A program made the translations under genes and the position numbers. DNA of 32,000 nt, taken from contig CAZXEQ010000001.1 in NCBI GenBank assembly GCA_964640155.1, positions 276,403-308,402 of the forward strand. Reading direction: 5' to 3'. Source of the stretch: an uncultured bacterium. Its GTDB lineage: Bacteria > Auribacterota > JACPWU01. Positions 209 to 29,733 of the stretch are shown here, piece after piece (positions within the stretch are counted from its first letter, which is position 1; the number at the start of each line of letters is the position of its first letter). The notes under the pieces are model-generated. The model did no database searches. It saw nothing but the letters and a program-made list of their open reading frames with translations, and had not been told where the DNA came from.

Positions 209-264
209 AAGTTCTCCTATTAAAAACAATCATCAATCCCCAAATTCCAAACTCCAAATAATTT

Positions 265-1599: not shown

Positions 1600-1688
1600 T
1601 ATTCCACTCCTTTTTCAAAACTCATCACACATTGAGCGTCGCAATATTATTTTTAGGAAAGAAGATCGATAAAAGAAAAAATCTCTTT

Positions 1689-2072: not shown

Positions 2073-2148
2073 ATTTTTATTATCCTCCCTCTAAAGACAC
2101 ACGTCAACAAAAAAAGACAATTTGACATCCTATGATTATAGTCTATGT

Positions 2149-2326: not shown

Positions 2327-2431
2327 CAGAAAATCATACTTTTCTCTGAGCACTTTAAAACACAAAATCCTTTAAAAATTTTAACTTTTCAAGTTGAAAG
2401 TAAAGACAACCTCATTTACGATAATCGCCTT

Positions 2432-3553: not shown

Positions 3554-3738
3554 CAATGAAGTTTAGAGATTGAAAGTCTAAAATTACTAACAAGTCCGCA
3601 GTTTATAATACACATCAAGAACTTGTACCTTTTTATTATTTTTCTAAGGATCGGTACTACTTCGATGTAGTACTACAGGGCCGATCGAAAGTCTTGTCGG
3701 ACTGTCAGATAAACAACGGCCCTGTCAGTAAGACTGCA

Positions 3739-4731: not shown

Positions 4732-4760
4732 AACGACTTATCCTTAACTATTAAAAATTT

Positions 4761-7154: not shown

Positions 7155-7307
7155 TTTTAGGATTTTACCTATATCGTTTAAGTGTTTTTTATTGTGATGT
7201 ATTATACCAAAAATATTTTTTTATAAAAATTGTTGTGGTAATCGCTTGTAAAGCTGATAGAATCTACCTCCGTCACTAAACTTAAACCTTAAAGGAGAAT
7301 CAGCAAG

Positions 7308-12039: not shown

Positions 12040-12109
12040 TTTCCTGTTTCCTGTTTCATGTTTCATGTTTCATGTTTCATGTTTCATGCCTCATGTTTCA
12101 TGATTGATG
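12040..12109 (+). repeat. Tandem heptanucleotide array, ten units of TTTCATG-like sequence, in the divergent acpS/mazG intergenic region
   Basis: Units in order: TTTCCTG x2, TTTCATG x5, CCTCATG, TTTCATG, ATTGATG. Contiguous, with no spacers. Confidence 0.9.
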
Positions 12110-12126
12110 GGATTAAGAACAAACTT

Positions 12127-12924
12127 ATGAAAAAAAGTAACAAGAAAAAAACCAAATCATCCTCTTTCGACCAATTGGTAGAAATCATGCGCATATTGCG
12201 AGGGCCCAAAGGCTGTCCGTGGGATAAAGAGCAAACCCTCAAAAGCCTCAAACCTTATATGGTTGAAGAATGCTATGAAGTTTGGGAAGCCATTGATAAC
12301 GGAAGTCCTTCCCAGATTAAAGAAGAACTTGGAGATCTTCTTTTTCAAGTGGTCTTTTGTGCCCAAATTGCCTGCGAAAACCTTGAATTTGATATTCAAG
12401 ATGTAGCAAAAACTGTTAAAGAAAAAATGACTCGCCGACATCCTCATGTTTTTGGAAAAACAAAAGTGAAAGATTCTGAGGAGGTCCTGTCAAACTGGGA
12501 ATTGATCAAAAAGAAAGAACGTTCTGAAAAAGCTTCTGTCCTGCAAGGCATTCCAAAACATCTTCCTGCTCTTTTGAAAGCTCATCGTACCCAAGCTAAA
12601 GCGTCTCGTGTCGGTTTTGACTGGAAAAAGACAGAAGAGATGATGGATAAACTTGAAGAAGAGTATGGTGAATTAAAAGAGGCCTATCGAGAAGGCAATA
12701 TCGAGCATATTGAAGAGGAAATGGGAGATTTGCTTTTCAGTGTTGTAAATGTTGCTCGAGGCTTAAAAATTAATCCCGAAGACGCTCTTCACAAAACCAT
12801 TCGTAAATTTACAAAACGTTTTCAGTATATTGAAAAGAAAATTGCAGATCGTGGGGAAAAACTCGAAGAAAAGTCCCTCGCAGAATTAGATAAGCTTTGG
12901 AATGAAGCAAAGAAAAAGTTGTAA
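12127..12924 (+). CDS. mazG: Nucleoside triphosphate pyrophosphohydrolase MazG
   Basis: LRGPKGCPWDKEQT..SL..Y..EE.YE and duplicated EE.GDLLF motifs (two MazG domains). The track start at 12058 lies inside the heptamer array; ATG 12127 (MKKSNKKK) is the more likely start. Confidence 0.9.
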   Translation: MKKSNKKKTKSSSFDQLVEIMRILRGPKGCPWDKEQTLKSLKPYMVEECYEVWEAIDNGSPSQIKEELGDLLFQVVFCAQIACENLEFDIQDVAKTVKEKMTRRHPHVFGKTKVKDSEEVLSNWELIKKKERSEKASVLQGIPKHLPALLKAHRTQAKASRVGFDWKKTEEMMDKLEEEYGELKEAYREGNIEHIEEEMGDLLFSVVNVARGLKINPEDALHKTIRKFTKRFQYIEKKIADRGEKLEEKSLAELDKLWNEAKKKL

Positions 12925-12957
12925 TTCGCAATGCGTTAAAAAGTTAAGACCTAACGA

Positions 12958-14784: not shown

Positions 14785-14811
14785 GTATACTTCCCTTCTT
14801 TGTCTGCAGAG

Positions 14812-14840
14812 GATATACCATGAGAATTGAGTCTTGTCAA
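14812..14840 (-). promoter_or_regulatory. Candidate sigma70-type promoter for the 12958-14784 gene
   Basis: On the minus strand: TTGACA (14840-35), 17-nt spacer, TATATC (14817-12), about 28 nt before the ATG. A C6 tract (G6 on +, 14845-50) sits just upstream of the -35. Confidence 0.4.
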
Positions 14841-14869
14841 ATGAGGGGGGATCTCGTACGAATCACTAC

Positions 14870-15757
14870 CTAGGATATTGCTTTTTGTAACGCTTCTTTC
14901 AACTCTGGATACTGAAATTTAAATCCAGCATTGAGCAATTTTTTCGGAACAACACGTGTACTTGACAAAAGCAAGGCATCTGCCATTTCCCCAAAAACAA
15001 GTTTAGCCATCAAAGCAGGTATTGGAAACACAGTCGGTCGATGAAGAATTTGCCCCAAAGTTTTTGTGAATTCAAAATTGGTCACAGGCTGTGGCGAAGC
15101 AGCATTAATAGCACCATGGAGGGGAGACGTTAAAAGATAAGAAACAATTTTTGGAATTTCTGACAAAGAGATCCAACTCATATATTGATGCCCATTTCCC
15201 AATTTTCCTCCTAATCCTAATTTAAAAGGCAGAAGCATTTTGGCTAAAGCACCCCCTGCCCCATCCAATACAATTCCAAATCGTAAATGAATCACTCGTG
15301 TTCTAAAAGACCGTAAATCATCAGAAGCCTTCTCCCAAGCCTGACACACTTCAGGCAAAAATCCCTCTCCAGGCAAACTCTGCTCCGTCAAAAGCTCGTC
15401 TCCTCGATCTCCATAAAACCCAATTGCTGAAGCACCAATAAAAGTTGAAGGAGGTTTGCTCAACTGACTTAAAAACTGGCATAGTCGCTCTGTTGAATTA
15501 ACACGACTTTCTCTAATTCTCTTTTTCTTTTCTTGAGTCCATCGTCCACTAGAAATATTTTCACCGGCCAAATGAATGAAAGCATCTAATCCATCAATGT
15601 CACCCTTTAGTTCTCCCGTTTCAATATCCCAAAAAATTTCGTTGTCATTGGCTACAGAACGACGCACCACATTAAAAATAAAATGACCCTCTTTTTTTAG
15701 AAAGTTGACCAATGGCGTTCCAATAAATCCATGAGAGCCTGAAATTATAATTTTCAT
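14870..15757 (-). CDS. TIGR01777/YfcH-like epimerase-family protein (atypical SDR with C-terminal DUF1731)
   Basis: MKIIISGSHGFIGTPL Rossmann motif, SAIGFYG, C-terminal ..P..L...GF.F.YP.L..AL. Confidence 0.8.
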   Translation of the reverse strand: MKIIISGSHGFIGTPLVNFLKKEGHFIFNVVRRSVANDNEIFWDIETGELKGDIDGLDAFIHLAGENISSGRWTQEKKKRIRESRVNSTERLCQFLSQLSKPPSTFIGASAIGFYGDRGDELLTEQSLPGEGFLPEVCQAWEKASDDLRSFRTRVIHLRFGIVLDGAGGALAKMLLPFKLGLGGKLGNGHQYMSWISLSEIPKIVSYLLTSPLHGAINAASPQPVTNFEFTKTLGQILHRPTVFPIPALMAKLVFGEMADALLLSSTRVVPKKLLNAGFKFQYPELKEALQKAIS

Positions 15758-16547: not shown

Positions 16548-17720
16548 TTAAATCTTAAAAAATCTCTTTACCTTATCTAGAAAAGCCTTATGCATCGGCA
16601 TAGCACCTTCCGAGTTTATCTCAGCAAAACGTTTCAAAAGATTTTTCTGCTCTTCTGCTAACTTAACAGGGATTTCAATTAAAATTTTTATCATCTGATC
16701 CCCTTTGCCATATCCTTGAAGATGTGGAAGACCCTTTCCCTTTAAACGAAAAGTCTTTCCTGTTTGTGTTCCACTTGGGATTTTGAGCATGGCTCTTCCT
16801 TCTAAAGTGGGAACTTCTACTTCTCCACCCAAAGCCGCAATATAAAAAGGAATTGGGACTTCACAAATCAAATCATTTCCATGCCGCTCAAAAAATTCAT
16901 CTTCTTCCACATGAATTAAAATATAGAGTGAACCCGGTTCACCGCCAACCATCCCCGCATTACCTTCCCCACTCATCTTTAAACGAGAACCTGTTTCAAC
17001 GCCTGCTGGAATTTTAATAGAAATTTTTCGGGGAGCTTTACTTCGTCCTTCACCACGACAGCGCTTACAGGGATGCGGCATCACTTGCCCTCGACCACGA
17101 CATCGGGGACACGTTTGACTCACCGTAAAAAATCCCTGATTACGACGTACTTGACCCTGTCCATGACATTGAGAACACTCTTCGCGACGAGACCCTGCTT
17201 CAATCCCTTCTCCTTTACATTCCTGACATTTTTCTAAATGTTCAAATTCTATCTCTTTTTTACAACCAAATGCAGCATCTCGCAAACTAATCGAAAGATC
17301 ATAGCGCAAGTCTTCTCCATCCAAATCCTGATCTCCTGCACGCTGTGAATGACTAAATCCAAAAATATCATCAAAAATACTGCCGCCTCGACCGCCCCGA
17401 CCCCCACCCCCAAACTCTCCCATAAAGGTACGAAGGGCTTCTTCTAAATCAATCCCAAAACCTCCTCCACCACCTGCACCACTACGTGCTCCAGCCCCTA
17501 CGCCTGCATGACCAAATTGATCATAACGAGCTTTTTTATCGGCATCACTTAGCACTTCATATGCTTCAGAAGCTTCTTTAAATTTTTCCTCAGCCGCTTT
17601 ATCTCCAGGATTGCGATCAGGATGATATTTCATCGCCAATTGACGATAAGCTTTTTTCATCTCATCGGCAGAAGCTGTTTTACTCACACCTAAAATTTCG
17701 TAATAATCTCTTTTTGCCAT
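16548..17720 (-). CDS. dnaJ: Molecular chaperone DnaJ (type I: J domain, G/F region, four CxxCxGxG zinc-finger repeats)
   Basis: DYYEILGV...HPDRN, Gly-rich linker, [32 protein letters not shown]. Confidence 0.97.
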
Positions 17721-17762
17721 AATAAATTTAATTCTCCATCCTCAACTTCACATCTAAAATGT

Positions 17763-17788
17763 ATTCACTCTCTTTGGGTTAAGTGAAT
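17763..17788. promoter_or_regulatory. Degenerate CIRCE-like inverted repeat upstream of dnaJ
   Basis: ATTCACT (17763-69), 12 nt, AGTGAAT (17782-88), 43-68 nt upstream of the dnaJ start. It shares only the CACTC/AGTG core with the CIRCE consensus TTAGCACTC-N9-GAGTGCTAA. Confidence 0.25.
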
Positions 17789-17851
17789 CACAATACACGA
17801 TACGCGATTTGTGATCAAGCCCCTATTAAATCAAAAACAAAGACCGTTTAC

Positions 17852-17959
17852 AAAAAAGTGTGTCCTCTACAAATACGGGTGACACTCGACGGGGAGCCCC
17901 GCCGCGCGCAATTTTTCGTGAGCACGGTGGGGACGACGAGTGGCAGGTCCCGTTTCTTA
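17852..17959 (+). ncRNA. Unclassified GC-rich structured RNA element, copy 2 (minimal 79-nt core), in the leader of giant GspK-like gene 1
   Basis: Core 17875-17953. P1 is ACGGG/CCCGU. P2 is CACUCG (17883-88) with CGAGUG (17937-42). P3 is CCCCGCCG (17897-904) with CGGUGGGG (17925-32), containing a G-U pair that is only valid on the + strand. The conserved loop is CGCGCAAUUUUUCGUGAGCA. Conserved junctions are UGA, ACGGGGAG and GCAGG. No + strand gene lies upstream; the ATG of the next gene is about 150 nt downstream. Confidence 0.6.
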
Positions 17960-18106
17960 CCTAGTCCTAAAGGACGGCGAAAAGCCTGAAGAGACACTTT
18001 TATAGAGGAAAACTAATCTAATATCTTTAATTGCAATTTAAAAGTAACACTATTATTATAATATGCTTTCACGATATTAAATCTATTTTTAGACATCAAA
18101 TATTGT

Positions 18107-21100
18107 ATGTTTATCAATCATCATAAGTCTGCATCTACTGGAGCCGCCCTGGTTCTCACCGTGGGAATGCTTGCCCTTTTGACTTTGCTTGCCGTTGCTT
18201 TTGTAACACTCACACGAACTGAAGAAAAAATGAGTCGTTCATCTATTTATAGATGCCAAGCTCGAGCCATTGCTTCTGCAGGTCTTCATTATGCCATTGC
18301 CATTCTTCAAAAAGATCTACACGACGACAAAGCTGCAACAACTTTAACAGATCCTCAAATGTTGGATTCTTTCGATGAAGAATGGTCGACACTTTTTCTG
18401 GGAGCAGATATTCAACTAAGTACTTATGATGCTCGAATCTCTCGATGGATTTACATTCGAAAAACAACGGATCCAGACAGTCCCATCGTGGGTCGATTTT
18501 CTATTTTAATTCAAGATGAGGCAAGTAAGATCAATATCAATACAGCTGGAATAGGCCATCAAAACGAAGGTTGTAGCACCCATGAAATTGATTTGGGCGA
18601 CATCCCTGGGATTGGCGTTGCCTTAAGAGATGATATTGTCAACTATCGCAATGGTGCTAACACAGTTCCGGGTTCAAATGGTTCAGGCCTCACTCTTTAT
18701 TTAGCAGATGATAACAACAATACAACCCCGCTCAAAAAAAATAATATTGACGATGATGCAGATACTGCAACAGAGGGAATAGACAGTCTGGACTCCGATG
18801 AAGGGCAAGATAACGGTGACCCGAGTGAATTCGACCCAGAATTTCCGTATGGAGACGACAGACCTTTCACAGACATTGAAGAATTGGAAGCCATTCCTGG
18901 AATCGGTAACAACATTGTAAAAGCAGCAAAAAACTATGCCACAATCTGGAGCTATGATCTAAATCAATACTGGAGTAAAGAAACTCAAAGTTGGAACAAA
19001 AAAATTAATTTAAATCATTTTCTTTCTACAGGTCAACTTTACGGACTTGATTTGACTGCCACATCCAAACTTCATCGCTTGGCAGCTAACATCATAGATT
19101 ATAGCGACTGCGATATTTACCCCACTTTCACTACTTCGGATAAGGACAATCCTATTTCAAGCAATTCCTATCTCGGGATTGAAGGATTACAATTCAATGA
19201 AATCATGACTCAAACAGCGGCCATCATCCGAGAAAATAATGCCCATCATGTCAATCGTACAAGCGCTTGGCACCCTCGCTCAACAGATGTAGCCTACGAT
19301 GAAGCAGATGAAGGACAAGTCGGGACATGGAGTTGGCCTTGGGACAATGCAAATTACAATGTCACGATTCAGATTGAAGCAAGTACAACCGAAACAACAG
19401 CACCTATCAGCTATGTTATCGAAGGTGTCTCCGGAACCATTGATCCTCCAGCTACGAGCAGTGGTCCTATTCCCATCACCATTACTGGTGGAGAAATTAA
19501 TTTAACACTCACAGCAGCTCAAGACCCAACAACGCCTCCTCAAAAATCTTCTTTTGATAAGATAAAAATATCTGGTTTAGGGAAATATATTGAAATCATT
19601 AATATCAGCCAGCAAGGCATTTCTTTTGATACAGGAGATGATGATGCATGGAGACTTTTCTTCAATCCATCGCTTGTCTCCCCTGTCGATGATGGTCTTC
19701 CTACCAAAGTTGTTGGGGATTCTTATTTGTCGCTTGCCTCCGCCCTCCATCCCTCTACTTCTATTACTCTGAATGGAATAGACGAGAATGTTCCTACTCA
19801 TGATCCACCCAACTATGACTATTTAATCATCGCAGACAGTCTTTACGCATTAGATGCACTGCATGGATCTAGCGACGACGGATCTTGGTCAAAAACGGAA
19901 TCTGAACCCGGAAAAGTTTTAGTTCTTCCAGATCTTCTCTCTCATCTTCTTGAAGGAACAGATTTGGTTTTAACTGACTGGAAAAATAATGTAATCGCAT
20001 ATGCTCCGTCTTCGAATGAAAAATTTAATATCACTGCGTACGATACATCTTCAACAACGTCTTATGCCTCTTTTTCTCGCATTTCTGCCGTCAATCAACA
20101 AAATGCCTGGTTGATTACAACAAGTACAAGTCCTGGGACAAAAAATTTCAATGCCATTAATTCAGATAGTGGAACAGACAACCTTTTCTGGAAAGTTAAA
20201 GATCGTTCATTCGCGAATCTAGGTGAATTAGGAGATGTTTTTTTAGGAACCAGTAACAATGCAACGCATGACATTGAAACCAGCTATAGCCCTCTGTATT
20301 TTTCTAGAATTACTTTGTCTTCCAAAAGAATTGAAGCAGAGGACGCTGATATGCCTTTACCCTGGAATGCTCAAGAAATATCTTTCGAAAATGATGGAAC
20401 GACACGCTATCTTGCTCCTGGAACATCGGGAGGATGGATATGGAACTGGACTTTTAATCCCACTAACACTTTACCGGATATTGATAAACCTTTTCGTCTT
20501 CCTGTCAACAACACCACATTTGATCTACTTGTTTACGGACAATTTCTTTATCATTTTGATTCACCTATGGGAATTCATCGAAATCCTAAACCCAATCATG
20601 GAGTGAGCCTACCATCTGTCACCATATCAGGAAACAACATCAATTTTCCAATCTATGCAAATGGTTTGGCCCCAAAATTAGATTATATTATTCTGACTCC
20701 CGAGCCCTATACTTGGGGAAAAATCAATATCAATACAGCTTCCAGACAAACTTTAAAGGCCTTACCAGGCATAAGCACATCACTGGCCAATCATATCCTC
20801 GCCTATCGACAAGGAAATTCCGGGCCCTTTAACCAAATTCAAGAAGTCACAGAAGTTTCTAATATTGGGGAAACAACGTTTAAGCCCATTTCCAATCTTA
20901 TTACCGTCAGAAGCGATACCTTTCGTATTCTCGTTAAAGGCCAACAAGTTATGGATATGAATGAAGATAACACCATCGATTCTAATGAAATTATGTCCAC
21001 AATCACTTTAGATGCCATTATAGACAGAAATCCGTCTGGGCAAAGGCCTAACACCAACGATCAATATCAGATTAAGAGTTTAAAACATGAGTACTCCTAA
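18107..21100 (+). CDS. Giant GspK-like minor pseudopilin (paralog 1, 997 aa) with inserted beta-sandwich/LTD-like modules
   Basis: GspK-type N-terminus lacking Glu+5 (STG|AALVLTVGMLALLTLLAV). IQDEASKININTAG + IPGIGVALRDDIVNYR, and a second GKININTAS..LKALPGIS..LANHILAYR helix-hairpin-helix pair. C-terminal ..LITVRSDTFRILV... as in T2SS protein K. About 650 extra residues compared with typical GspK. Confidence 0.75.
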   Translation: MFINHHKSASTGAALVLTVGMLALLTLLAVAFVTLTRTEEKMSRSSIYRCQARAIASAGLHYAIAILQKDLHDDKAATTLTDPQMLDSFDEEWSTLFLGADIQLSTYDARISRWIYIRKTTDPDSPIVGRFSILIQDEASKININTAGIGHQNEGCSTHEIDLGDIPGIGVALRDDIVNYRNGANTVPGSNGSGLTLYLADDNNNTTPLKKNNIDDDADTATEGIDSLDSDEGQDNGDPSEFDPEFPYGDDRPFTDIEELEAIPGIGNNIVKAAKNYATIWSYDLNQYWSKETQSWNKKINLNHFLSTGQLYGLDLTATSKLHRLAANIIDYSDCDIYPTFTTSDKDNPISSNSYLGIEGLQFNEIMTQTAAIIRENNAHHVNRTSAWHPRSTDVAYDEADEGQVGTWSWPWDNANYNVTIQIEASTTETTAPISYVIEGVSGTIDPPATSSGPIPITITGGEINLTLTAAQDPTTPPQKSSFDKIKISGLGKYIEIINISQQGISFDTGDDDAWRLFFNPSLVSPVDDGLPTKVVGDSYLSLASALHPSTSITLNGIDENVPTHDPPNYDYLIIADSLYALDALHGSSDDGSWSKTESEPGKVLVLPDLLSHLLEGTDLVLTDWKNNVIAYAPSSNEKFNITAYDTSSTTSYASFSRISAVNQQNAWLITTSTSPGTKNFNAINSDSGTDNLFWKVKDRSFANLGELGDVFLGTSNNATHDIETSYSPLYFSRITLSSKRIEAEDADMPLPWNAQEISFENDGTTRYLAPGTSGGWIWNWTFNPTNTLPDIDKPFRLPVNNTTFDLLVYGQFLYHFDSPMGIHRNPKPNHGVSLPSVTISGNNINFPIYANGLAPKLDYIILTPEPYTWGKININTASRQTLKALPGISTSLANHILAYRQGNSGPFNQIQEVTEVSNIGETTFKPISNLITVRSDTFRILVKGQQVMDMNEDNTIDSNEIMSTITLDAIIDRNPSGQRPNTNDQYQIKSLKHEYS

Positions 21101-21145
21101 CCACTTCAGACCAAAAGAATTAATGAATTTGACCCTCTTCGATCG

Positions 21146-21174
21146 TTGACCCTAGAGAATCAATATGTTATTCT
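21146..21174 (+). promoter_or_regulatory. Candidate sigma70-type promoter for the gspG-like gene
   Basis: TTGACC (21146-51), 17-nt spacer, TATTCT (21169-74) preceded by TGT. TTGACCCT is directly repeated at 21129-36 and 21146-53. Confidence 0.3.
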
Positions 21175-21204
21175 AAATGAGTGAAGGTTTTCAGTAGGTG
21201 ACTT

Positions 21205-21753
21205 ATGCAACCAAAGCGAAGTCTTAGGATAAGTGTTTCAGCTTTCACAGTCATTGAAATGCTTATTGTTATTTCAGTTATTTCTATTCTTGCAGGTATT
21301 TTACTTCCGGCTATTCATTCTGCTCAGAAAAAAGCAAAAATTGCAAAAACTCAGGCTGTCATCGATTCTATCACGATCGCTCTCAAACAATATCAAACAG
21401 ATTTTGGAGCTTACCCATCGGCTGACATTCCAGGCGTTTCAGGAGAAACTTCCGCTGAATGCGCCTACTATTACACAGCCGCAACATTTGTAGCAGGTGA
21501 AAATAGTAATGAAATCTCAGCAGGCCCCTATATGGAATTTCGGCAAAAAGATAGAAAATCAACCAGTAGAACCGCTGACCTATTGGGAGATGGCACAAGC
21601 AATGATACGCTTTATCAAGTGATTGATTCTTGGGGAAACCCTTTAATTTATACTCAACCGGGCACCAACAATTCTAGTTCTTTTGATCTGTACTCCTATG
21701 GGCCAAATGGTACAGCAGGAGGAAGCCCTGATGATGACATTAAGAATTGGTAG
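21205..21753 (+). CDS. gspG: Type II secretion major pseudopilin GspG-like
   Basis: Prepilin motif SA|FTVIEMLIVISVISILAGILLPA, then AK..QAV.D...I..AL..Y..D.G.YPS, and C-terminal DSWGNPLIY..PG....FDLYSYGPNG.AGG..DDI.NW, closely matching GspG family conservation. Confidence 0.85.
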   Translation: MQPKRSLRISVSAFTVIEMLIVISVISILAGILLPAIHSAQKKAKIAKTQAVIDSITIALKQYQTDFGAYPSADIPGVSGETSAECAYYYTAATFVAGENSNEISAGPYMEFRQKDRKSTSRTADLLGDGTSNDTLYQVIDSWGNPLIYTQPGTNNSSSFDLYSYGPNGTAGGSPDDDIKNW

Positions 21754-22348
21754 AAAAACAAACCATCGATTTCTAGGACAATCTGGGGGCTTCACACTCA
21801 TTGAACTCCTCGCTGTAATTACAATTATTGGATTACTTGCACTATTGGGCGTCACCACATTTTCAAAATTTGGAAGCAATATTCGACTTAAAAGTGCGGC
21901 AGATCAAATTGCAAGTACCTTGCGTTTGGCTAGAGATTTGGCCGTTACTCAAAATAAAACAATACGAGCCACCATTTATCCTAGAAGAGCAAGTCCTCCC
22001 AATTGTATCGTTTTAACAGATTCAGGAGTTCAGATAGACAAGCCTTGGATTGCTTCTCCCTTGATTGAAATCGCAGACATAAATGGTTCTTCTAGCTCTA
22101 CAACTATAGACATTGATTTTTCCCCTTATGGAACCGCAAGCAGTAACTCTATTCATATCATTCAAAAAGGAACATTGATTTCAGGAAGTGCTTATAGCCC
22201 TTCAGGCTCGTACACAAGCGCCAACAAAAGCGAGCGCGTCAAGTGTTATACCCTCACAACAGATAACAATACAGCAAGAACACAAATCTATGCTTATGGG
22301 AGAAATGCGCCATGGGATACGGACGATTTAAGCGCATCACCGCCATAA
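21731..22348 (+). CDS. GspH/FimT-like minor pseudopilin
   Basis: The in-frame ATGATG at 21731 overlaps the gspG stop. Leader MMTLRIGRKTNHRFLGQSGG|FTLIELLAVITIIGLLALLG, then ...AADQIASTLRLARDLAV.. typical of GspH-class pseudopilins. The track start at 21683 is probably too far upstream. Confidence 0.7.
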   Translation: MMTLRIGRKTNHRFLGQSGGFTLIELLAVITIIGLLALLGVTTFSKFGSNIRLKSAADQIASTLRLARDLAVTQNKTIRATIYPRRASPPNCIVLTDSGVQIDKPWIASPLIEIADINGSSSSTTIDIDFSPYGTASSNSIHIIQKGTLISGSAYSPSGSYTSANKSERVKCYTLTTDNNTARTQIYAYGRNAPWDTDDLSASPP

Positions 22349-22923
22349 AAAGGGATGCTGTTCCTCAAAGTACGTCCTCTATAACCGCGGGTGACGCTCG
22401 GCGGGGTGTCCCATCGAGCGCAACTTTTCCTGAGCACGATGAGGCTGACGAGCGGCAGGCCCCGCTACTTTTTCAAGATACACCCTTTAATATAGACCAT
22501 CTTAAAAAGTTAGAGAGACAAAAGACAGGTGGCTTCACTTTGGTTGAGATTGTAGTTGCTCTGGGACTTTTAGCCTTGGGCATTCTGGGAATTCTTTCGC
22601 TTTTCCCTGTAGGCTTAGACGCTCAAAAAAGGGCCTTGGATTATTCAAATCTAACTAATTTAGCAGAATGGAAAATGGCCGATATCGCTTACAAAAGTCA
22701 TTTGACAGGCTCCCTTAACAGTCTGACCGCTGCTACAAGTTATCCGAATTCTGGAGTTACTTCTTTTGATCAAAACAAAAAATATTCGTGGCATTATTAT
22801 GTTTCCAAACCCTATTCTGGCACTCTTGACAATCTTTATAGAGTTGATTTAGCGATTTATTCCGTCAGTGACACAACAAATCCTATTGAAAAGGTGGTGA
22901 GTTATCTTGAACTTCCTCAATAA
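22312..22923 (+). CDS. GspI-like minor pseudopilin (prepilin-type N-terminal methylation domain); start codon uncertain
   Basis: QKTGG|FTLVEIVVALGLLALGILGILSLFP, with predicted cleavage after 22533. The only in-frame ATG/GTG/TTG upstream is ATG 22312 (GGAG SD). That gives an unusually long 74-aa leader which reads through RNA element copy 3. Assigned as I-like by small size and position. Confidence 0.6.
   Translation: MGYGRFKRITAIKRDAVPQSTSSITAGDARRGVPSSATFPEHDEADERQAPLLFQDTPFNIDHLKKLERQKTGGFTLVEIVVALGLLALGILGILSLFPVGLDAQKRALDYSNLTNLAEWKMADIAYKSHLTGSLNSLTAATSYPNSGVTSFDQNKKYSWHYYVSKPYSGTLDNLYRVDLAIYSVSDTTNPIEKVVSYLELPQ
22367..22471 (+). ncRNA. Unclassified GC-rich structured RNA element, copy 3 (79-nt core), between the GspH-like stop and the mature GspI-like coding sequence
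   Basis: Core 22387-22465, the same length as copy 2. P1 is GCGGG/CCCGC. P2 is CGCUCG (22395-400) with CGAGCG (22449-54). P3 is UCCCAUCG/CGAUGAGG. The loop is AGCGCAACUUUUCCUGAGCA. Compensatory changes relative to copies 1 and 2 occur in P1, P2 and P3. Confidence 0.6.
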
Positions 22924-23764
22924 CATATTGTCATGCGTCGTGCGTTATACGTCGAGCGTAAAAAGATATATTCCCTCAAGAACCACGCATCACGCATCAC
23001 GTATCACGCACAACGGTTTCTCAATGATTGAGTTACTGAGTGCTCTCGCTATTTTTAGCATCATGGGCCTCGCCCTTTATATTGTTTTTGATAGGGCCAA
23101 TCAAGTGTGGAAACATGGAGAATATAAGTCTGATCAATATCAAAATGCCCGACTCGCATTAGACACCATGTCACGAGAACTGACTTCTTGCTTGATTGGA
23201 ACAGGTGGGCCCACTTCTTTTCAAGATAACACAAATAAACGTCCTTATCTGTGGTCACTGGATAATTCACAGACTATTTCAGGACAAACTTATGATCGTG
23301 ATGAAATCTATTTTACTTTTGTAAGAGCCAACACCATTTATGAAGTTGGCTATTCTATTGATGATCAAAGTAATAGTAACTGCAAAGATGATATTTTGAG
23401 AAGGGCCTATACCTCTGGACTTTCAAGTGGCACAGATTTTGATATTGCAACAACAGATTTTGGATCCAATGATGATTTTGCGTTTAAAGTCACAGATTTG
23501 GATATCAAATTTATTTATAAAGACTCTTCTGGAAATTATCAAAAGGCAAATGTATGGGATACACGCATGGGTTATTTGACAGGAGGAGGAACCACTACCT
23601 CTGGCACCACCATTGACGATGGGCAACTACCGGATTGGATTGAAATCTCCATGCGTATTGTCGATCAGGAAACCCTTAATAAAAACAATGGTAATCCTGC
23701 AAAAGCTGATCGAAAAGAGTTCAAAACACTTATTCCCATGAATCAAAGGAGATTTTCCAGATGA
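22907..23764 (+). CDS. GspJ/PilW-like minor pseudopilin
   Basis: NG|FSMIELLSALAIFSIMGLALYIVFDRANQVW....ARLALDTMSRELTS, as in GspJ-class proteins. TTG start at 22907 follows AAGGTGGTGA; alternatives are TTG 22928 and GVG-frame GTG 22940. The stop overlaps the next gene's ATG (ATGA). Confidence 0.7.
   Translation: MNFLNNILSCVVRYTSSVKRYIPSRTTHHASRITHNGFSMIELLSALAIFSIMGLALYIVFDRANQVWKHGEYKSDQYQNARLALDTMSRELTSCLIGTGGPTSFQDNTNKRPYLWSLDNSQTISGQTYDRDEIYFTFVRANTIYEVGYSIDDQSNSNCKDDILRRAYTSGLSSGTDFDIATTDFGSNDDFAFKVTDLDIKFIYKDSSGNYQKANVWDTRMGYLTGGGTTTSGTTIDDGQLPDWIEISMRIVDQETLNKNNGNPAKADRKEFKTLIPMNQRRFSR
22933..23011. repeat. Inverted pair of heptamer arrays (RTGCGTN on the left, CACGYAT x4 on the right) at the gspI/gspJ junction, inside the gspJ-like leader-coding region
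   Basis: Left arm is ATGCGTC GTGCGTT ATACGTC GAGCGTA (22933-60). Right arm is CACGCAT CACGCAT CACGTAT CACGCAC (22984-23011). The arms pair as periodic 5-bp blocks (18 of 27 positions complementary). Confidence 0.7.
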
Positions 23765-26658
23765 AAATAGTCGACCCTTTGAAAGAAAAAAATTCTCAAG
23801 GCATCGCTCTGATTCTTGTCATGGGGACTCTTGCACTACTCACAGTTCTTGCAGTTTCTTTTACCACATTGATGCGCCATGAAGAAAAATCTAGCCGGGG
23901 ATCATTTCAATTTATTGAAACTCGTGAGCTTGCTACGGCCGGACTTCAATACGCCATCTCTATTTTAACAAAAGATTTAAATGACGATCAAACTTCTAAT
24001 CAACTTTATGATGCTTTTGATGAGGATTGGATTACCCTTTTTACAGGAACAAGTGTTGATTTAGACCAAGACGGAACTTCAGACTCACGATGGATTAACA
24101 TTCATGAAAATGGAATTCTGATCGGCCGTTATGCCATATGCATTCAGGACGAAGCTGGGAAAGTCAATATCAACACAGCCGCTTCAACCTCTCAAAATGA
24201 AGGATGGTCTCCTTATGAAACCAACATGGCTGTTTTGCCCGGTTTAAGCTCAACACTTGCGAGTAATATTCGTAACTATCGGTATGGAGCCAATACTGTC
24301 CCAGGGCTGAACTCCAGTCAACTCGCACCCGATGGGGATGACGATGAAACCTCACTTCCCTTTCGTAATGACGGCATTGACAACGATGGAGATGGATCTA
24401 TCGATGAAATTACTGAAGGAGAAGATGATCCTATTGAATTTAATCCTGAAATTCCCTATGGAGATGATCAACCTTACTCCTCTATTGAAGAATTAGATAA
24501 AGCCAGTAGCAGCTTAACTTCAAGTAATGTTAAAACGCTTAAAAATTATACAACTATCTCCAGTTATGATCTCAATCAATATTGGAATGGGGCTTGGTCT
24601 AAGAAAGTTAATTTAAATCATCTTCTCACCACAGACTCTCTTTACAATTTAGTTCAGGGATCTTCTGGATCTAATTCATTCAGACTTACAGCCAATATGA
24701 TTGACTCTTTGGATCGAGATAATTATCCCACAGCAAAATGGTCTTCCAGTGCTTCATTCAATTCAACTAATGCTTATATCGGGCTAGAAGGACTTCAATT
24801 TAATGAAGTCATGAGACAAACCAAATGGTTTGCTGGAGAAAACAGTACGGCTGATCGTACAGGTTCTGGGTGGAGTGCTTTTTCAACAGAAGACAGGGGA
24901 AATGAAGGAACAACAGGCCAATGGTCCTGGCCATGGGATAATGGAACTTATAACATGAGAATTTATGCGCGTACAGAGGCTGCAACCCCTGTCACTTATA
25001 CGTTGGAAACACTTTCAGGATCTGTAACAACACTTCCCACCCAGGTGAACAATGTGACTGTTTCAGGAGGCAGAATTAATTTACAACTTCTTGCCCCTAC
25101 TCAATCGGGCGGAGGACAACAATATTCCTATTTTGACAAAATTGAAGTTCAGGCTGGGAAATACATTGAAATCATCAACATCAGTCAAAGAGCTGTCACT
25201 GTTGATAAAACAGGAAGCGATTCTTGGAATCTTTATTTCGGAGGGTCTCTCAGTGCCCCCTCTGCTGATGGACTTCCTGCAAGACAAAGTGGAGGAACAG
25301 CTCTTGCCCTATCTGGAGCAACTTATCCCACCAGTGGAGATATTACTTTATGGTCGGCAGCTCCTACCACCTATCGCTATTTAATTATTGCAGACAGTCT
25401 TTATGGACTCGATGCCACTTATGGCAATAATAATGGGTCATGGTCCGGTGGATCTGCTCCAGAATCAGAAAGACTTTTAGTTCTTCCACAACTTTTGTCT
25501 AATCTCAATTCTGGCACAGACCTCACACTCACAGACTCTCAAGGTAATGTTATTGCGTATGCACCTGCTACAGCGCAATTTAATATTCTAGGATTTGATG
25601 ATGCTACCCTGGCTACTTATCAAAGTTTTTCTAGATCTTCACCTGTCAATCAACAAAGTGCATGGACCACTTCTACAGCCACAAACGAACAAACACCCGG
25701 AAGAAATAATAATGGAGTGACACAAAGTAATACGGGAGAAAATAAATATTGGTTGATCAAAGATCGCCCCTTTGCCAGCATCGGAGAATTAGGAGATGTA
25801 TTTTTAGGAACTCAAAATAATCAGACTTATGATTTGGAAACATCTGGAAATTATCTGGATAAAATAACCCTAGCAGCTAAACGATTGGAAGCTGAAAATG
25901 CAAACTCTATTTCCTGGAGTAACTCAGAAACAGCTTCTGATCAGGATGGAACCACACGCTATGTTGCTTCCAATAGTAATCGCACACTTGCAAGATGGGA
26001 TTGGACGTTTGACATCAGCATTACTACCGACATCAGCAAACCTTTTCGACTTAAAAGTAATACTTCTTATGACATGATTGCATATGGGCAATTCGCAAGC
26101 AATTTTGAATCCCCCAGTGGAACATCTCGTTGGGTAAAACCTAATCACAGCTCTGCTCTAGACTCTCAAACGGTTGGTAATCTCATAACCAACGGTATTC
26201 GTTTCGATGCTTATGGAAATACTTCCGTAATTCCTAAATTTGATTTTTTAATTTTAACTCCAGACCCTTATACCTGGGGCAAAATCAATATTAATACAGC
26301 TTCCAGCACTGTTCTTCAAAGTTTAAAAGGTATTAGTAGTACGCTTGCCTCAAACATTGTCAGTTATCGCCCTTTATCGAATAGCAATCCTTTTAATACC
26401 ATACAAGAGTTGATGTCCGTTTCAGGGATTGATGAAACGGAGTTTAAGCCAATTGCCAATCTTATTACTGTACGTAGTGACGTTTTTAGAGTCATTGTAA
26501 GAGCTGAGAAAATTGTCGATGCTAATAACAACGGTACCGTTGATTCTGGGGAAAATATTTCAACCATTACATTAGATGCGATTGTAGATCGTAATCCTTC
26601 CGTCCGTGATCCTGGTACAACGGATAAACACAGAATTGAATCATTGAGATATGAGTAA
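23761..26658 (+). CDS. Giant GspK-like minor pseudopilin (paralog 2, 965 aa) with inserted beta-sandwich/LTD-like modules
   Basis: NSQG|IALILVMGTLALLTVLAV, IQDEAGKVNINTAA, GKININTASSTVLQSLKGISSTLASNIVSYR, LITVRSDVFRVIV. Collinear with paralog 1 along its whole length. AAGGAGA SD. Translationally coupled to the gspJ-like gene. Confidence 0.75.
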   Translation: MKIVDPLKEKNSQGIALILVMGTLALLTVLAVSFTTLMRHEEKSSRGSFQFIETRELATAGLQYAISILTKDLNDDQTSNQLYDAFDEDWITLFTGTSVDLDQDGTSDSRWINIHENGILIGRYAICIQDEAGKVNINTAASTSQNEGWSPYETNMAVLPGLSSTLASNIRNYRYGANTVPGLNSSQLAPDGDDDETSLPFRNDGIDNDGDGSIDEITEGEDDPIEFNPEIPYGDDQPYSSIEELDKASSSLTSSNVKTLKNYTTISSYDLNQYWNGAWSKKVNLNHLLTTDSLYNLVQGSSGSNSFRLTANMIDSLDRDNYPTAKWSSSASFNSTNAYIGLEGLQFNEVMRQTKWFAGENSTADRTGSGWSAFSTEDRGNEGTTGQWSWPWDNGTYNMRIYARTEAATPVTYTLETLSGSVTTLPTQVNNVTVSGGRINLQLLAPTQSGGGQQYSYFDKIEVQAGKYIEIINISQRAVTVDKTGSDSWNLYFGGSLSAPSADGLPARQSGGTALALSGATYPTSGDITLWSAAPTTYRYLIIADSLYGLDATYGNNNGSWSGGSAPESERLLVLPQLLSNLNSGTDLTLTDSQGNVIAYAPATAQFNILGFDDATLATYQSFSRSSPVNQQSAWTTSTATNEQTPGRNNNGVTQSNTGENKYWLIKDRPFASIGELGDVFLGTQNNQTYDLETSGNYLDKITLAAKRLEAENANSISWSNSETASDQDGTTRYVASNSNRTLARWDWTFDISITTDISKPFRLKSNTSYDMIAYGQFASNFESPSGTSRWVKPNHSSALDSQTVGNLITNGIRFDAYGNTSVIPKFDFLILTPDPYTWGKININTASSTVLQSLKGISSTLASNIVSYRPLSNSNPFNTIQELMSVSGIDETEFKPIANLITVRSDVFRVIVRAEKIVDANNNGTVDSGENISTITLDAIVDRNPSVRDPGTTDKHRIESLRYE

Positions 26659-26674
26659 AAAGCTATAACGCGAA

Positions 26675-27652
26675 CTACTGCCTTGAAAGCATCTCACAAG
26701 CAGTTTGAAATGCTTGTTTGACCTCTAAATCCTTCATACATTCATGTGTTTGAATACGGCAAAATCCCTCCATACATGGAGAACATGGGATTTCGAGTCG
26801 CACAACACGATGGAGACAACCATAAGGGCCATAAATTTTAGGGTCGGTCGGACCAAAAATAGCCAAAACAGGACAATTGACGGCCACAGCTAAATGCATG
26901 GGGCCCGAATCATTTGCAATAAAAAGTTTTGCTTTCTTGAGGAGAGCCGCAACTTGCATTAAAGAAAGTTCTCCTGTTAATTGAATGACTTCCGAAGAAA
27001 AAACCTTCTTAAACTCCTCACGATCTTCTTTGGGACCCACAACCACCATCGTAAGAGAATATTTTTCTTTCAATTGCTCAGCCAATTGAGCAAATTTCGA
27101 AGCTTCCCATCTTTTTAACCGATTGGCAGCCCCTGGCCCTAAAACAATATAGGAAGAACCAACGCTCATTCCTTTTTTTAAAAGAATTTCTTGCATTTCT
27201 ACCCCAAAAGATTCAAGTCGAGGTAATGCAAATGTAGCAGGGCCCTCAATTCCCAAGGTTTTCAAACGCGCCAGATGTCTAAATACAGCATGACCTTCTA
27301 CTTTCTTTTTCAAAATAGGTGTTGAGAAACGAGGACGTATAAAAATAGGAATGGCCGTATTTTTTAAATCAATCACCAAATCAAATTTTTCTTTTTTGAG
27401 CTGCATCATCAAAACCAGTTTCTCTCTAAGGCGCGTATGTTTGTCATAGATAATTGTTTTTTCTAGATACGGATGGTTTTCAAAAATCTCTTGAGCCCGA
27501 GGTCCTACCATTGCTGTAATACTCGCGTTCTTAAAAAAAAGACGTGTTAGATGAAGGCTGGGGGTCGTTAAAATCGCATCCCCAATATTGCTGAGCGAAA
27601 TAAAAAGGATTTTTTTTATTTCTCGAGGATCGATGTGTTTCATACAGGACAA
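26675..27652 (-). CDS. Glycosyltransferase family 9 (LPS heptosyltransferase-like)
   Basis: ILFISLSNIGDAILTTPSL N-terminal motif and NDSGPMHLAVAVNCPVLAIFGPTDP C-terminal motif, both typical of GT9. Confidence 0.85.
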   Translation of the reverse strand: MSCMKHIDPREIKKILFISLSNIGDAILTTPSLHLTRLFFKNASITAMVGPRAQEIFENHPYLEKTIIYDKHTRLREKLVLMMQLKKEKFDLVIDLKNTAIPIFIRPRFSTPILKKKVEGHAVFRHLARLKTLGIEGPATFALPRLESFGVEMQEILLKKGMSVGSSYIVLGPGAANRLKRWEASKFAQLAEQLKEKYSLTMVVVGPKEDREEFKKVFSSEVIQLTGELSLMQVAALLKKAKLFIANDSGPMHLAVAVNCPVLAIFGPTDPKIYGPYGCLHRVVRLEIPCSPCMEGFCRIQTHECMKDLEVKQAFQTACEMLSRQ

Positions 27653-29733
27653 TCTTCATGCTTGATGATTTTCTGAATTTCCTGAAAAACCTGATTGACA
27701 CTTATTTTTTCAAGACAATCATGCGTTACTATTTTGCAGATAGGAGAATAACACGGAGCGCAAGGGACCGGATGCGTTAAAACTTTTACATTACCAGGGG
27801 GAACATGCCTCAAAGGCTCTGTAGGGCCAAACAAAGCAATAGCAGGAGTTCCTACGGCCGCTGCCAAATGAAGTGGCGCAGAATCTCCTCCAATCCAAAG
27901 TTGACATCTTCTCAAAAATTCTGACAGCACACCCAAATCCAATTGCCCAATAAGATTTAAATATTTTATTTCTAATCCTGACAAAAGTTCCTGAGCATCT
28001 TTTTCATCTTCTTTTCCCCCAATAAAAACAGGGATAGCTTTCAATCGCTGAGAAACAAGCTTTGCCAACTCTCTAAAATGTTCAAACCCCCATCGTTTGG
28101 TTTGCCATCGGACATTCGAAAAAGGGAAAAGAGCAATCAAAGTATTGCTGGATGAGAGCTGATGAACTTTAAAAAAATCTTCAACCCATTCTTTTTGTTG
28201 TGGAGAATTCCACATTTCTAAATAAACATCTTGATGAGAGATTCCTAAAAGCTGAAGCAATCGATTTTGACTTTCAATAGGGCCTACATCTTTTTGATAA
28301 GGAATGTGATGTGTCAGAAGAAATCCCCTTCCCTGGCGACCGAATCCCACTCGAACAGGGATACGACTTAAAAAACCTAAAAGATGAGATTTTTCGTTAT
28401 TTTGAAGATCAATCAAAATATCAAATCGCCGAATTTTGATTTCATGCAAAAGCTTAAAAAAGCTCTTTAGATTAACCTTTTTAGGAAAAATTATTTTTTC
28501 TTCAAGATACGGACAATGTTCGACCACTTTTTGATAAGCCTCTTGAACCAAAAGGCTCACATGCGAATTAGGATAGTTTTTTTTTAGAGCACGAAAGGTG
28601 GGGCTTGCAAGAATAACATCTCCTAAAGCACTTGATTTAATCACAAGAATTCTCGGGATTTTCAAAAGCTCTTCATAAACCTCTAAAGTTCTTTTGACCA
28701 TTAGATTTAAATTAAACTTTTCTTCGACAGAATGTCTTGCCTCTTGTATGACAGAGCTCAGGCTTTCTGGATTTTTTAAAACTTGAATCATTTGTTCCGC
28801 CAAAGTCTGCGCGTCTTGGGGAGGAACAAGCCAACCATTCTTTCTATGCTCAATGATATCTACCACACCTCCAACACGTGTGGCTATGACAGGCACACCC
28901 ACAGCTTGAGCTTCTACCAAAACTCGACCAAACGCCTCCGGTGTAGTCGTCGCCAAAACCAAAAGATCCAAATCCTTCATCGCCTCATAGACATTCTGTG
29001 TGCCAGGAAGAAAATCGACATACGAAGAAAGTCCTAAATTTTCTCGAAGCTTTAGAAGGCCCTGATAATAATTTTGTTTTGAGGCAGGCGCATCTCCAAT
29101 GACAAAACCCTTTGCATCAGGAAAAGTCTTAATCACTTCCTTCATAGCCATTAAAAAAAATTCATGACCTTTGAGAGGCGTAATACGACCTAAAATTCCA
29201 ATATGAGGAGTCTTAAAATTGATTGATTTAGAATAAAAAGGAAATTTCTTTAAATCAACCCCTCTTGGAATTAACCGAATTCTTTCATTAGAAACACCAA
29301 AATTATGAAGCAAATGTTCACGAATCGCTTCAGAAACCGCAATAACTCTTTCTCCCCATCCCATGACACGACTTCCCCAGTGAGGACGATAATAACCATG
29401 CGCTGTCGTCACAAATCTTGCAGAAGTTCCTCGAACAGCAAGCCATGCAACCCAAGCTGGTGCACGAGATCGGGCATGCACAATTTCAATTTTTTCATTT
29501 TGAATAATTCTTTTCAAAGCTCGCGATGAAGACCAAATACTCCAAAGAGATTTACGATGAACAGGAAGTTCAATATGACGAACCCCCACTTTTTCGAGAG
29601 ACTGGACCAAAGGTCCTCCCGCACTAACAACAAAAGCTGAATGTCCTAACCGGACAAGCTCACATGCCAAATCCAGCGTGCCTGTTTCAACACCCCCCAT
29701 TTTCATTTGAGGAACAATTTGTAAAATCCTCAT
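27640..29733 (-). CDS. Fusion protein: N-terminal GT4 glycosyltransferase plus C-terminal GT9 heptosyltransferase-like domain
   Basis: aa 1-360 carry GT4 hallmarks (MRILQIV....GG.E, EAFGRVLVEAQAVGVPVIATRVGG). aa 360-697 carry GT9 hallmarks (ILVIKSSALGDVILASPTF, GGDSAPLHLAAAVGTPAIALFGPT). Confidence 0.8.
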   Translation of the reverse strand: MRILQIVPQMKMGGVETGTLDLACELVRLGHSAFVVSAGGPLVQSLEKVGVRHIELPVHRKSLWSIWSSSRALKRIIQNEKIEIVHARSRAPAWVAWLAVRGTSARFVTTAHGYYRPHWGSRVMGWGERVIAVSEAIREHLLHNFGVSNERIRLIPRGVDLKKFPFYSKSINFKTPHIGILGRITPLKGHEFFLMAMKEVIKTFPDAKGFVIGDAPASKQNYYQGLLKLRENLGLSSYVDFLPGTQNVYEAMKDLDLLVLATTTPEAFGRVLVEAQAVGVPVIATRVGGVVDIIEHRKNGWLVPPQDAQTLAEQMIQVLKNPESLSSVIQEARHSVEEKFNLNLMVKRTLEVYEELLKIPRILVIKSSALGDVILASPTFRALKKNYPNSHVSLLVQEAYQKVVEHCPYLEEKIIFPKKVNLKSFFKLLHEIKIRRFDILIDLQNNEKSHLLGFLSRIPVRVGFGRQGRGFLLTHHIPYQKDVGPIESQNRLLQLLGISHQDVYLEMWNSPQQKEWVEDFFKVHQLSSSNTLIALFPFSNVRWQTKRWGFEHFRELAKLVSQRLKAIPVFIGGKEDEKDAQELLSGLEIKYLNLIGQLDLGVLSEFLRRCQLWIGGDSAPLHLAAAVGTPAIALFGPTEPLRHVPPGNVKVLTHPVPCAPCYSPICKIVTHDCLEKISVNQVFQEIQKIIKHEDCPV

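Follow-up and report, generated by a model that had tools for sequence, protein, structure and literature searches.

We analysed a window of 32,000 nucleotides (nt) from an uncultured bacterium (contig CAZXEQ010000001.1, positions 276,403 to 308,402), which carries a block of type IV pilin-like genes framed by two very large paralogs of the minor pilin GspK, called K1 and K2 here. The open reading frame (ORF) listing shows six intact ORFs on the + strand, in the order K1-G-H-I-J-K2, spanning positions 18107-26658 (Table 1). This order, and the existence of two full-length collinear paralogs of 997 and 965 amino acids (aa), had been described in a first-pass annotation made from the sequence alone, and both descriptions hold: K1 and K2 align from end to end with 48% identity and 65% positives. 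The same annotation let the block begin at 17852; the six genes start at 18107, whereas 17852-18106 is non-coding and contains one copy of a dispersed repeat.

Table 1. Coordinates of the pilin genes, of the predicted modules of K1 and K2 and of other features of the window (slashes mark prepilin cleavage sites).
Feature	Position	Strand	Description
K1	18107-21100	+	997 aa; giant GspK/PilX-type minor pilin; extra paralog, between dnaJ and G
K1 C-terminal ComEA-like (HhH)2 unit	20720-20899	+	residues 872-931; Pfam HHH_3
G	21205-21753	+	182 aa; GspG-like major (pseudo)pilin; leader ...VSA/FTVIE
H	21683-22348 (ORF)	+	GspH/FimU-type minor pilin; leader G/FTLIE
I	22312-22923	+	GspI/PilV-type minor pilin; cleavage site G/FTLVE; mature part about 130 aa
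J	22907-23764	+	GspJ/PilW-type minor pilin; leader G/FSMIE
K2	23761-26658	+	965 aa; giant GspK/PilX-type minor pilin; ancestral position directly after J
K2 leader, long alpha1 and first pilin-sheet strands	23761-24156	+	residues 1-132; predicted (AlphaFold2, hhalign)
K2 first INxNTA/HhH helical region	24157-24720	+	residues 133-320; Asp-rich loop (DGIDNDGDGSIDE), second unit VNLNHLLT
K2 nested beta-sandwich head	24721-26265	+	residues 321-835; predicted CBM36/CBM6-like jelly roll, lamin-tail-like Ig domain (about 466-612), third beta domain
K2 C-terminal ComEA-like (HhH)2 unit	26281-26466	+	residues 841-902; Pfam HHH_3, 67.4 bits
K2 C-terminal strands	26476-26655	+	residues 906-965; ITVRSDVFR and two more strands, predicted to return to the pilin sheet
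Dispersed GC-rich repeat	2220-2330	+	
Dispersed GC-rich repeat	17856-17965	+	upstream of K1; not part of the pilin system
Dispersed GC-rich repeat	22361-22475	+	H-I junction; read in frame within the I leader
Heptamer TTTCATG, nine tandem copies	12040-12102		across annotated start (12058) of a MazG-like gene
ORF without Pfam or NCBIfam match	12958-14784	-	608 aa; signal-peptide-like N-terminus
GT4-GT9 fusion	27640-29733	-	697 aa; glycosyltransferase-heptosyltransferase; LPS cluster
LpxL-like-Mito_fiss_Elm1 fusion	29730-31661	-	643 aa; lipid A acyltransferase-like; LPS cluster

Among the six pilin genes, only K1 and K2 lack the glutamate at position 5 (Glu5). Their leaders (...STG/AALVLTVGML in K1 and ...SQG/IALILVMGTL in K2) are cut after a glycine, and a hydrophobic helix follows. 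Both proteins contain two helix-hairpin-helix (HhH) units introduced by a (K)INxNTA motif (KININTAG and KININTASR in K1, KVNINTAAS and KININTASS in K2) and the strand motif ITVRSDxFR, so that all the GspK hallmarks initially listed for them are present. The profile searches that had been proposed as a check returned Pfam T2SSK (PF03934) for K2 with 26.2 bits, above the gathering threshold (GA) of 24.2, and for K1 with 22.9 bits, just below it. T2SSK_1st (PF21687; GA 26.2) gave 13.9 bits for K1 and no match for K2. With the NCBIfam model T2SS_GspK (NF037980), the scores were 71.8 bits for K1, 63.6 for K2 and 46-79 for their homologs, and the equivalog cutoff of 130 was missed by both paralogs. 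The control, Escherichia coli GspK, obtained 108.7 bits with T2SSK_1st and 49.2 with T2SSK. The K proteins also give PilX_N matches, which in the homolog P0013 rise above the GA (26.2 bits), and an hhalign comparison of the K family with E. coli GspK aligned residues 10-290 of K2 collinearly with residues 3-223 of GspK (E=5.6e-5). K1 and K2 are therefore GspK/PilX-type minor pilins, not equivalogs of GspK.

The four smaller proteins have prepilin motifs that retain Glu5 (A/FTVIE in G, G/FTLIE in H, G/FTLVE in I and G/FSMIE in J). G matches Pfam T2SSG (52.2 bits, GA 21), scores just below the cutoff of the GspG equivalog TIGR01710 (74.5 against 88.85 bits) and has the C-terminal motif ...DDDIKNW. 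H, for which the start codon is not certain (on the identical contig L001, the gene was called from the equivalent of 21698), matches Pfam GspH (23.4 bits, GA 21) and N_methyl (23.7 bits), with 44.2 bits for TIGR01708. For I, the only scores besides N_methyl (23.7 bits) are the sub-threshold ones of PilV (23.5) and GspI (17.1). Homologs of I and J were gathered from related loci by iterated hidden Markov model (HMM) searches. The resulting I profile aligned with E. coli GspI beyond the shared helix (hhalign probability 84.5%, E=6.9e-6) and found no GspI match among PDB sequences. The J profile matched EpsJ across the globular domain (2ret_B, E=1.3e-5), other GspJ structures and E. coli K-12 GspJ (hhalign 95.9%), and Pfam T2SSJ is matched by 7 of the 13 members of the J family. 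At the level of sequence, the assignment of H, I and J is thus reasonable, I being the weakest. Considering the Pfam match of H, the profiles of I and J and the HMM matches of K, the block contains a set of four minor pilin types, FimU/GspH, PilV/GspI, PilW/GspJ and PilX/GspK.

The I gene presents a peculiarity. Its ORF has 203 aa, compared with 154 aa in the related loci L002 and L006, and begins with the same ATG as there, which overlaps the H gene at its end; it appears about 50 codons too long because a copy of the dispersed repeat lies in frame within the leader. No canonical start codon occurs between the repeat copy and the cleavage site; either the I prepilin would carry some 74 leader residues, or translation of I may suffer.

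An AlphaFold2 (AF2) model of K2, built from 49 homologs (predicted local distance difference test score, pLDDT, 86.3; predicted template modelling score, pTM, 0.84), opens with a long alpha1 helix (residues 9-79) and a pair of strands, continues with a helical region (about 133-320) and then a beta-rich block (about 321-835), and ends with the four helices of an HhH unit (about 840-905) and three strands (908-918, 932-943 and 958-964). In the alignment of the K family, S906 is invariant and N900 and T903 are nearly so. Foldseek matched the model with the GspK/XcpX structures 3ci0_K, 6utu_C and 9a1f_T with a probability of 1.0 over 124-131 columns; these matches are partial, with a target template modelling score (TMt) of 0.27-0.29. 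The K2 model shows the GspK fold, that is, a pilin sheet broken by a helical domain. For the beta-rich block, Foldseek searches with both the full model and a model of the insert only pointed to family 36 carbohydrate-binding modules (CBM36; 1w0n/1ux7, probability 1.0, TMt 0.57-0.58), and the insert-only model also matched CBM6, CBM61 and CBM29, as well as the tail domains of lamins A/C and B1 (3gef/3jt0, probability 0.98). The Pfam LTD (lamin-tail) match of Omnitrophota homologs (e.g., P0020) maps onto residues 466-612 of K2, in the immunoglobulin-like (Ig) domain of Table 1. Isolated K2 insert segments gave no Pfam match, and the lamin-tail assignment consequently rests on the homologs and on the fold search. 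In the model, about 550 residues of beta-sandwich modules are thus nested in the helical HhH domain of K. K2 corresponds in this respect to a modular type IV pilin in the sense of Raynaud et al. (2021), in which a pilin module is combined with non-pilin domains, with the modules nested in the scaffold rather than appended to it.

The first helical region of K2 also contains an Asp-rich loop (DGIDNDGDGSIDE...EGEDDP.EF; residues about 193-226, window about 24337-24438) with nearly invariant D/E/G columns in the family, which looks like a calcium-binding motif of the DxDxDG type.

K1 and K2 share with GspK and XcpX (3CI0, 5VTM/6UTU; PF21687 and PF03934; NF037980) the leader cut after Gly, the alpha1 helix without Glu5 and the INxN-initiated HhH-type helical domain within the pilin sheet, followed by a conserved V-x-S-x-x-F strand. 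K2 is also encoded directly after the GspJ homologue, as GspK is, whereas K1 lies upstream of G. The giant proteins differ from GspK in being three times larger, with the predicted beta-sandwich modules in or after the helical domain, in their low scores with the GspK models, in their ComEA-like C-terminal HhH unit and in the machinery that accompanies their relatives, which includes PilT and PilM.

The giant K proteins are not restricted to this lineage. A word-indexed search recovered 77 K homologs, with named sources including 'Chlamydiae bacterium', Omnitrophica, Brocadiaceae/Scalindua and plain 'bacterium', some of which are already annotated automatically as GspK by NCBI. A scan of one genome per species yielded 70 loci, mostly from Candidatus Omnitrophota, plus Auribacterota and metagenome-assembled genomes (MAGs) labelled Planctomycetia. 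When 1.84 billion cluster representatives were searched exhaustively by HMM, 719 matched at E<=1e-30, and among the best 150 of these 719 clusters the proteins are mostly 900-2900 aa long. In at least 20 related loci, a J homologue (assigned by HMM) lies directly upstream of K. The giant-K layout had been presented in the first-pass annotation as without precedent; this does not stand, a K of about 1000 aa directly after a GspJ homologue being the norm in Omnitrophota, Auribacterota and related MAGs. Giant K is a large uncharacterised family, common in related phyla, and its architecture is a widespread variant of tip minor pilins. We found no paper on this family, including on the combination of GspK with a lamin tail domain, and the main study on Omnitrophota, which proposed type IVa pili as host-attachment organelles, does not mention this protein (PMC10066038).

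As claimed initially, the 32-kb window encodes no secretin, no GspE/F/L/M/C and no A24 prepilin peptidase (Pfam on ORFs of at least 100 aa, with a blastp check); the classical gene set of a type II secretion system (T2SS), gspD, E, F, L, M, C and O with pseudopilins, is not found there, and no PilY1/PilC-domain gene was detected by Pfam among the window ORFs. In the relatives, at least one PilB/PilT/PilC or PilM/secretin gene is present in 51 of 74 loci, and in 23 out of 23 loci with at least 8 kb on both flanks of K. In locus L003, genes for three T2SSE-family ATPases (two bearing a MshEN domain, the third PilT-like), for PilC/GspF, for a sigma54 regulator and for a kinase stand before G-G-H-I-J-K. 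After the pilins and K of L004 come genes for PilM, for an Amuc_1100-like protein and for a PilQ-like secretin bearing an AMIN domain. NCBIfam models identified PilT/PilU (443.8 bits, cutoff 319.1) and PilM (161.7 bits, cutoff 133) in the relatives. No GspL/M/C genes occur in the linked machinery of L003 and L004, nor any PilY1/PilC-domain gene among their called genes. The PilB/PilT/PilC or PilM/secretin genes near K in all the well-flanked relatives give the parent system the appearance of a retractile type IVa pilus built from a GspG-like major pilin, and not of a classical T2SS. The giant K homologs occur in clusters of the Omnitrophota type IVa type and in clusters resembling Amuc_1098-1102 of Akkermansia, beside PilB/PilT/PilC or beside PilM, Amuc_1100-like and secretin genes (in L004 the Amuc-family matches are below cutoff). 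Omnitrophota type IVa pili have been proposed to serve host attachment (PMC10066038). Machinery is absent nearby only in the clade of the window (the window, L002, L006 and L007), where the pilin block is detached from it.

In L003 (positions 1-7165) and similar loci (L010, L037, L059, L060, L064-L066), genes for PilB-like ATPases with the MshEN cyclic di-GMP (c-di-GMP) domain, a sigma54-type response regulator and a histidine kinase precede the pilin and giant-K genes, which suggests c-di-GMP and two-component control of the pilus of these relatives.

These data bear on the T2SS framing of the first-pass annotation. In a reading along these lines, the block would encode a classical pseudopilus serving a GspD/E/F secretion machine, possibly the chlamydial-type T2SS, with the K heads in the periplasm as substrate-recognition or secretin-gating plugs and K1 and K2 choosing different sets of exoproteins. 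The GspG-like character of G with its DDDIKNW motif, the fact that T2SS_GspK is the best named HMM for K, and the EpsJ/GspJ matches of J are all in line with such a pseudopilus. Furthermore, the nearest labelled relatives are 'Chlamydiae bacterium' MAGs, and an orphan block could supply minor pilins to chlamydial T2SS loci, which have been reported without recognisable minor pilins (PMC6668835). However, all HMM scores lie under the equivalog cutoffs, no K protein reaching that of GspK, the machinery of the relatives includes PilT (above cutoff), PilM and the PilQ-like secretin, and head modules of the CBM-like and lamin-tail-like kinds would be more usual in surface adhesins than in components that stay in the periplasm. 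The taxonomic label is also uncertain: RlmN of the window is 96% identical to a protein of L008, a 9,227-bp contig labelled Candidatus Auribacterota, 67-68% identical to proteins of 'Chlamydiae bacterium' MAGs and at most 49% identical to all others. Since the lineage is uncultured and the labels of its relatives conflict, we put no weight on chlamydial T2SS biology. The T2SS framing does not agree with the linked machinery, and we consider a classical pseudopilus improbable.

The C-terminal HhH unit of K raises another possibility, i.e., the tip of a DNA-uptake (competence) pilus, in which the near-consensus ComEA-type (HhH)2 unit would bind extracellular DNA and retraction would deliver it to the periplasm, K1 and K2 possibly differing in DNA affinity; a similar role has been proposed for ComZ or Vibrio minor pilins. 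This unit (INTAS...GIS...F.s.qEL..VsGI...F) is strongly matched by Pfam HHH_3 (69.4 bits in K1, 67.4 in K2, cutoff 27), a model that gives no match in canonical E. coli GspK. With the model of the ComEA HhH region (TIGR00426, cutoff 53.1), K1 reaches 55.2 bits and K2 falls below the cutoff with 38.1, and with the full-length comEA model (TIGR01259, cutoff 152) both remain below (57.2 and 40.0). Among PDB sequences, the K family profile ranks the HhH units of EEPD1 (59.6 bits) and ComEA (44.5) over XcpX (29.7). Judged by these profiles, the unit is nearer to ComEA than to canonical GspK. It differs from ComEA in being just one domain within a pilin, and its DNA binding is putative. PilT in the related loci would fit retraction, and bacterial lamin-tail domains often accompany extracellular nucleases. 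On the other hand, the helical domain of GspK is itself derived from HhH and has no known DNA role, so that the HhH of K may reflect ancestry and not function. Many Omnitrophota members have HHH_3 scores of just 27-32 bits, neither the window nor the inspected loci showed linkage with comEC, comEA or dprA, and the head modules look carbohydrate-binding-like. A pilus dedicated to DNA uptake therefore appears unlikely to us, while DNA binding by K is compatible with an adhesive tip.

The second K is a feature of few genomes. L006 and L007, both 'Chlamydiae bacterium' MAGs, have dnaJ-rsmE followed by G-H-I-J-K with a single K, whereas an extra K between dnaJ and G is found in the window, in L002 and in the partial contig L008; the only other candidate for a double K, in L045, is one gene broken by a frameshift. 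In a neighbour-joining tree, K1 of the window pairs with K1 of L002 and K2 of the window with K2 of L002, the two pairs being sisters, which indicates that the duplication predates the split between the window and L002 and that both copies were kept. K2 is the ancestral copy, and K1 arose by duplication in the common ancestor with the sister lineage. Comparison of K1 with its L008 ortholog gives a dN/dS of 0.107 over 641 codons, and K1 is thus under purifying selection. The only rare, lineage-specific features of the locus are this second K and the detachment of the pilin block from its machinery.

The two copies could also have been subfunctionalised, so that, for example, one primes filaments with I and J while its partner works with another I-J set or is displayed differently, or one of them could be silent. 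K1 is indeed located upstream of G, apart from I and J and behind its own 386-nt intergenic region, and the divergence between K1 and K2 is even over the protein, alpha1 and pilin core included. Nevertheless, both are full-length with every motif that is invariant in the family, K1 is under purifying selection and both are retained as orthologous pairs in L002. We regard a division of labour of this kind, or a silent copy, as quite unlikely.

On balance, the block probably encodes the full pilin set of a type IV filament machine with two alternative giant K tip adhesin-pilins, the machinery being encoded elsewhere in the genome. In this set, G is the GspG-like major pilin and H, I and J are minor pilins, joined by the two giant K paralogs, while motor, platform, secretin and peptidase would be supplied by genes at other loci. 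The scaffold of K is that of GspK/PilX, with a leader cut after Gly, an alpha1 helix without Glu5 and a split beta-sheet that, in the model, carries nested head modules and is closed in cis by the C-terminal strands. The analogy with GspK, CpaL and ComZ suggests that K would cap a priming complex of I, J and K, start filament assembly and end up at the extreme tip, where it would show its CBM-like and lamin-tail-like modules and thus act as an adhesin within the pilin, in the role of PilY1/PilC of classical type IVa pili. Priming complexes of PilVWX with PilY1 (PMC7541494), modular pilins (PMC8179133), among them ComZ (PMC6561018), and tip assembly by cis or trans beta-strand addition, as in CpaL (PMC13533445), provide precedents. 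The idea of a tip adhesin built into the pilin, already put forward in the first-pass annotation, fits the model, in which beta-sandwich modules lie inside a GspK scaffold and the C-terminal strands rejoin the sheet. Since both K copies have been kept, the cell is probably able to build two alternative tips on one machine, which may differ in ligand specificity or regulation. The two interchangeable tips suggested earlier are compatible with the retention of orthologous pairs and with the low dN/dS of K1 (0.11), and multiple minor-pilin/PilY1 sets operate on one machine in Myxococcus xanthus (PMC7541494, PMC9109919).

Several observations weigh against this interpretation. The motor and machinery genes are absent from the window, K1 and K2 miss the NCBIfam GspK cutoff, with K1 also just under the Pfam T2SSK threshold, and expression of I could be hampered by the repeat copy in its leader. 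The fold matches of the head are modest (TM-score about 0.5-0.6, 10-19% identity), the insert-only model has a pLDDT of 69.5, and no ligand-binding residues were identified in the head. Finally, the divergence between K1 and K2 is not concentrated in the head and thus gives no direct sign of specificity switching.

Comparison with known tips helps to situate the adhesin-pilin interpretation. In type IVa pili with PilX/PilK and PilY1/PilC (three sets in M. xanthus, PilC1/PilC2 in Neisseria), four minor pilins prime assembly and a large adhesin stands at the tip, and several alternative tip sets can exist per machine (PMC7541494, PMC9109919). Common points are the K-type subunit without Glu5 and, in the relatives, the PilT machinery. 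The present block differs from these tips by the lack of a separate PilY1 beta-propeller, the large module being inside the K pilin with a closing beta-strand predicted in cis, and by the duplication of K alone, not of the whole minor-pilin set. Pilin modules that carry bulky modules for display at the tip are also known in CpaL/TadG of Tad pili, ComZ of Thermus, CofB/TcpB and PilB/PilC of Streptococcus sanguinis. In CpaL and ComZ, as in the K2 model, the extra module interrupts the pilin fold, and the sheet is rejoined by a C-terminal strand (PMC13533445, PMC6561018, PMC8179133). K has no detectable sequence relationship with these modular pilins, which belong to different parent systems, and the inserted folds differ: a predicted CBM-like jelly roll, a lamin-tail Ig domain and a ComEA-like HhH unit in K, compared with beta-solenoid, von Willebrand factor A (vWA) or lectin domains.

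Another candidate relative was the Verru_Chthon cassette A-D (TIGR02600, TIGR02598, TIGR02599 and TIGR02596), composed of a giant protein A of about 1300 aa with a GspK-like N-terminus and three prepilin-type proteins. K matches A, I matches B, J matches C and H matches D, in each case within the N-terminal helix region only. Membership was rejected on the scores, which were 47.1 (K1) and 37.8 (K2) against a cutoff of 332.3 for A, 26.7 against 51.4 for B, 39.0 against 256.5 for C and 36.1 against 70 for D; none of the K homologs tested against the protein A model reached its cutoff. We found no paper on this cassette, which is a curated but uncharacterised analogue.

The other window ORFs of at least 100 aa correspond in Pfam scans to housekeeping and lipopolysaccharide (LPS)/envelope genes, apart from three without family match. 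The genes dnaJ, rsmE and rlmN lie upstream of the block, and family 9 glycosyltransferase (GT9) heptosyltransferase genes and an lpxL-like gene downstream, all on the opposite strand. The LPS cluster includes two gene fusions, GT4 with GT9 and an LpxL-like acyltransferase with a Mito_fiss_Elm1 domain (Table 1), both conserved in L002. The gene for the 608-aa ORF is wholly missing in the otherwise collinear L008, whose alignment skips from window position 12911 to 14884. The L008 alignment also breaks at the TTTCATG array, each unit of which contains an ATG (about 156 nt in the window versus about 24 nt in L008); this difference in copy number suggests a slippage-prone, possibly phase-variable start region. 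Promoter and terminator scans detected sites no more numerous than in shuffled sequence.

The GC-rich repeat is about 100 nt long, and its three copies are 78-83% identical. Besides a small hairpin, it contains a conserved one (CCCCACCG...CGGTGGGG), in which copy 3 shows a single compensatory change from C-G to T-A, and it folds no better than shuffled sequences (z -0.3 to -1.6). Rfam gave no match in the whole window at gathering thresholds nor in 17700-26700 at E<=1, which rules out a known riboswitch or leader for the GC-rich element before K1; that element is a copy of the dispersed repeat. The close relative L008 lacks this copy in front of K1, and the repeat thus behaves as a small mobile element, resembling miniature inverted-repeat transposable elements (MITE) or repetitive extragenic palindromes (REP).

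Omnitrophota and related uncultured, host-dependent bacteria have been proposed to attach mainly by type IV pili (PMC10066038). More speculatively, giant K proteins may represent a large and unrecognised class of all-in-one tips in Omnitrophota, Auribacterota and bacteria resembling the Planctomycetes-Verrucomicrobia-Chlamydiae group, each combining an initiator pilin and an adhesin with glycan-binding-like modules and a ComEA-like DNA-binding unit, with which ultra-small host-dependent cells might grab host cells or DNA; in the present lineage, such a tip might have been duplicated into a switchable two-tip pilus whose operon is set apart from its machine. We hold this wider proposal only tentatively. 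Giant K suggests a concrete answer to the nature of the tip, namely one giant subunit that would initiate the filament as well as bear the modules, replacing the pair of PilX and PilY1, and as a defined protein it is a candidate for recognising hosts or glycans or for capturing DNA. It would also add a natural case to the model in which tip assembly is licensed by cis or trans beta-strand addition, and the duplicated K of this lineage may be viewed as a small natural experiment in tip exchange.

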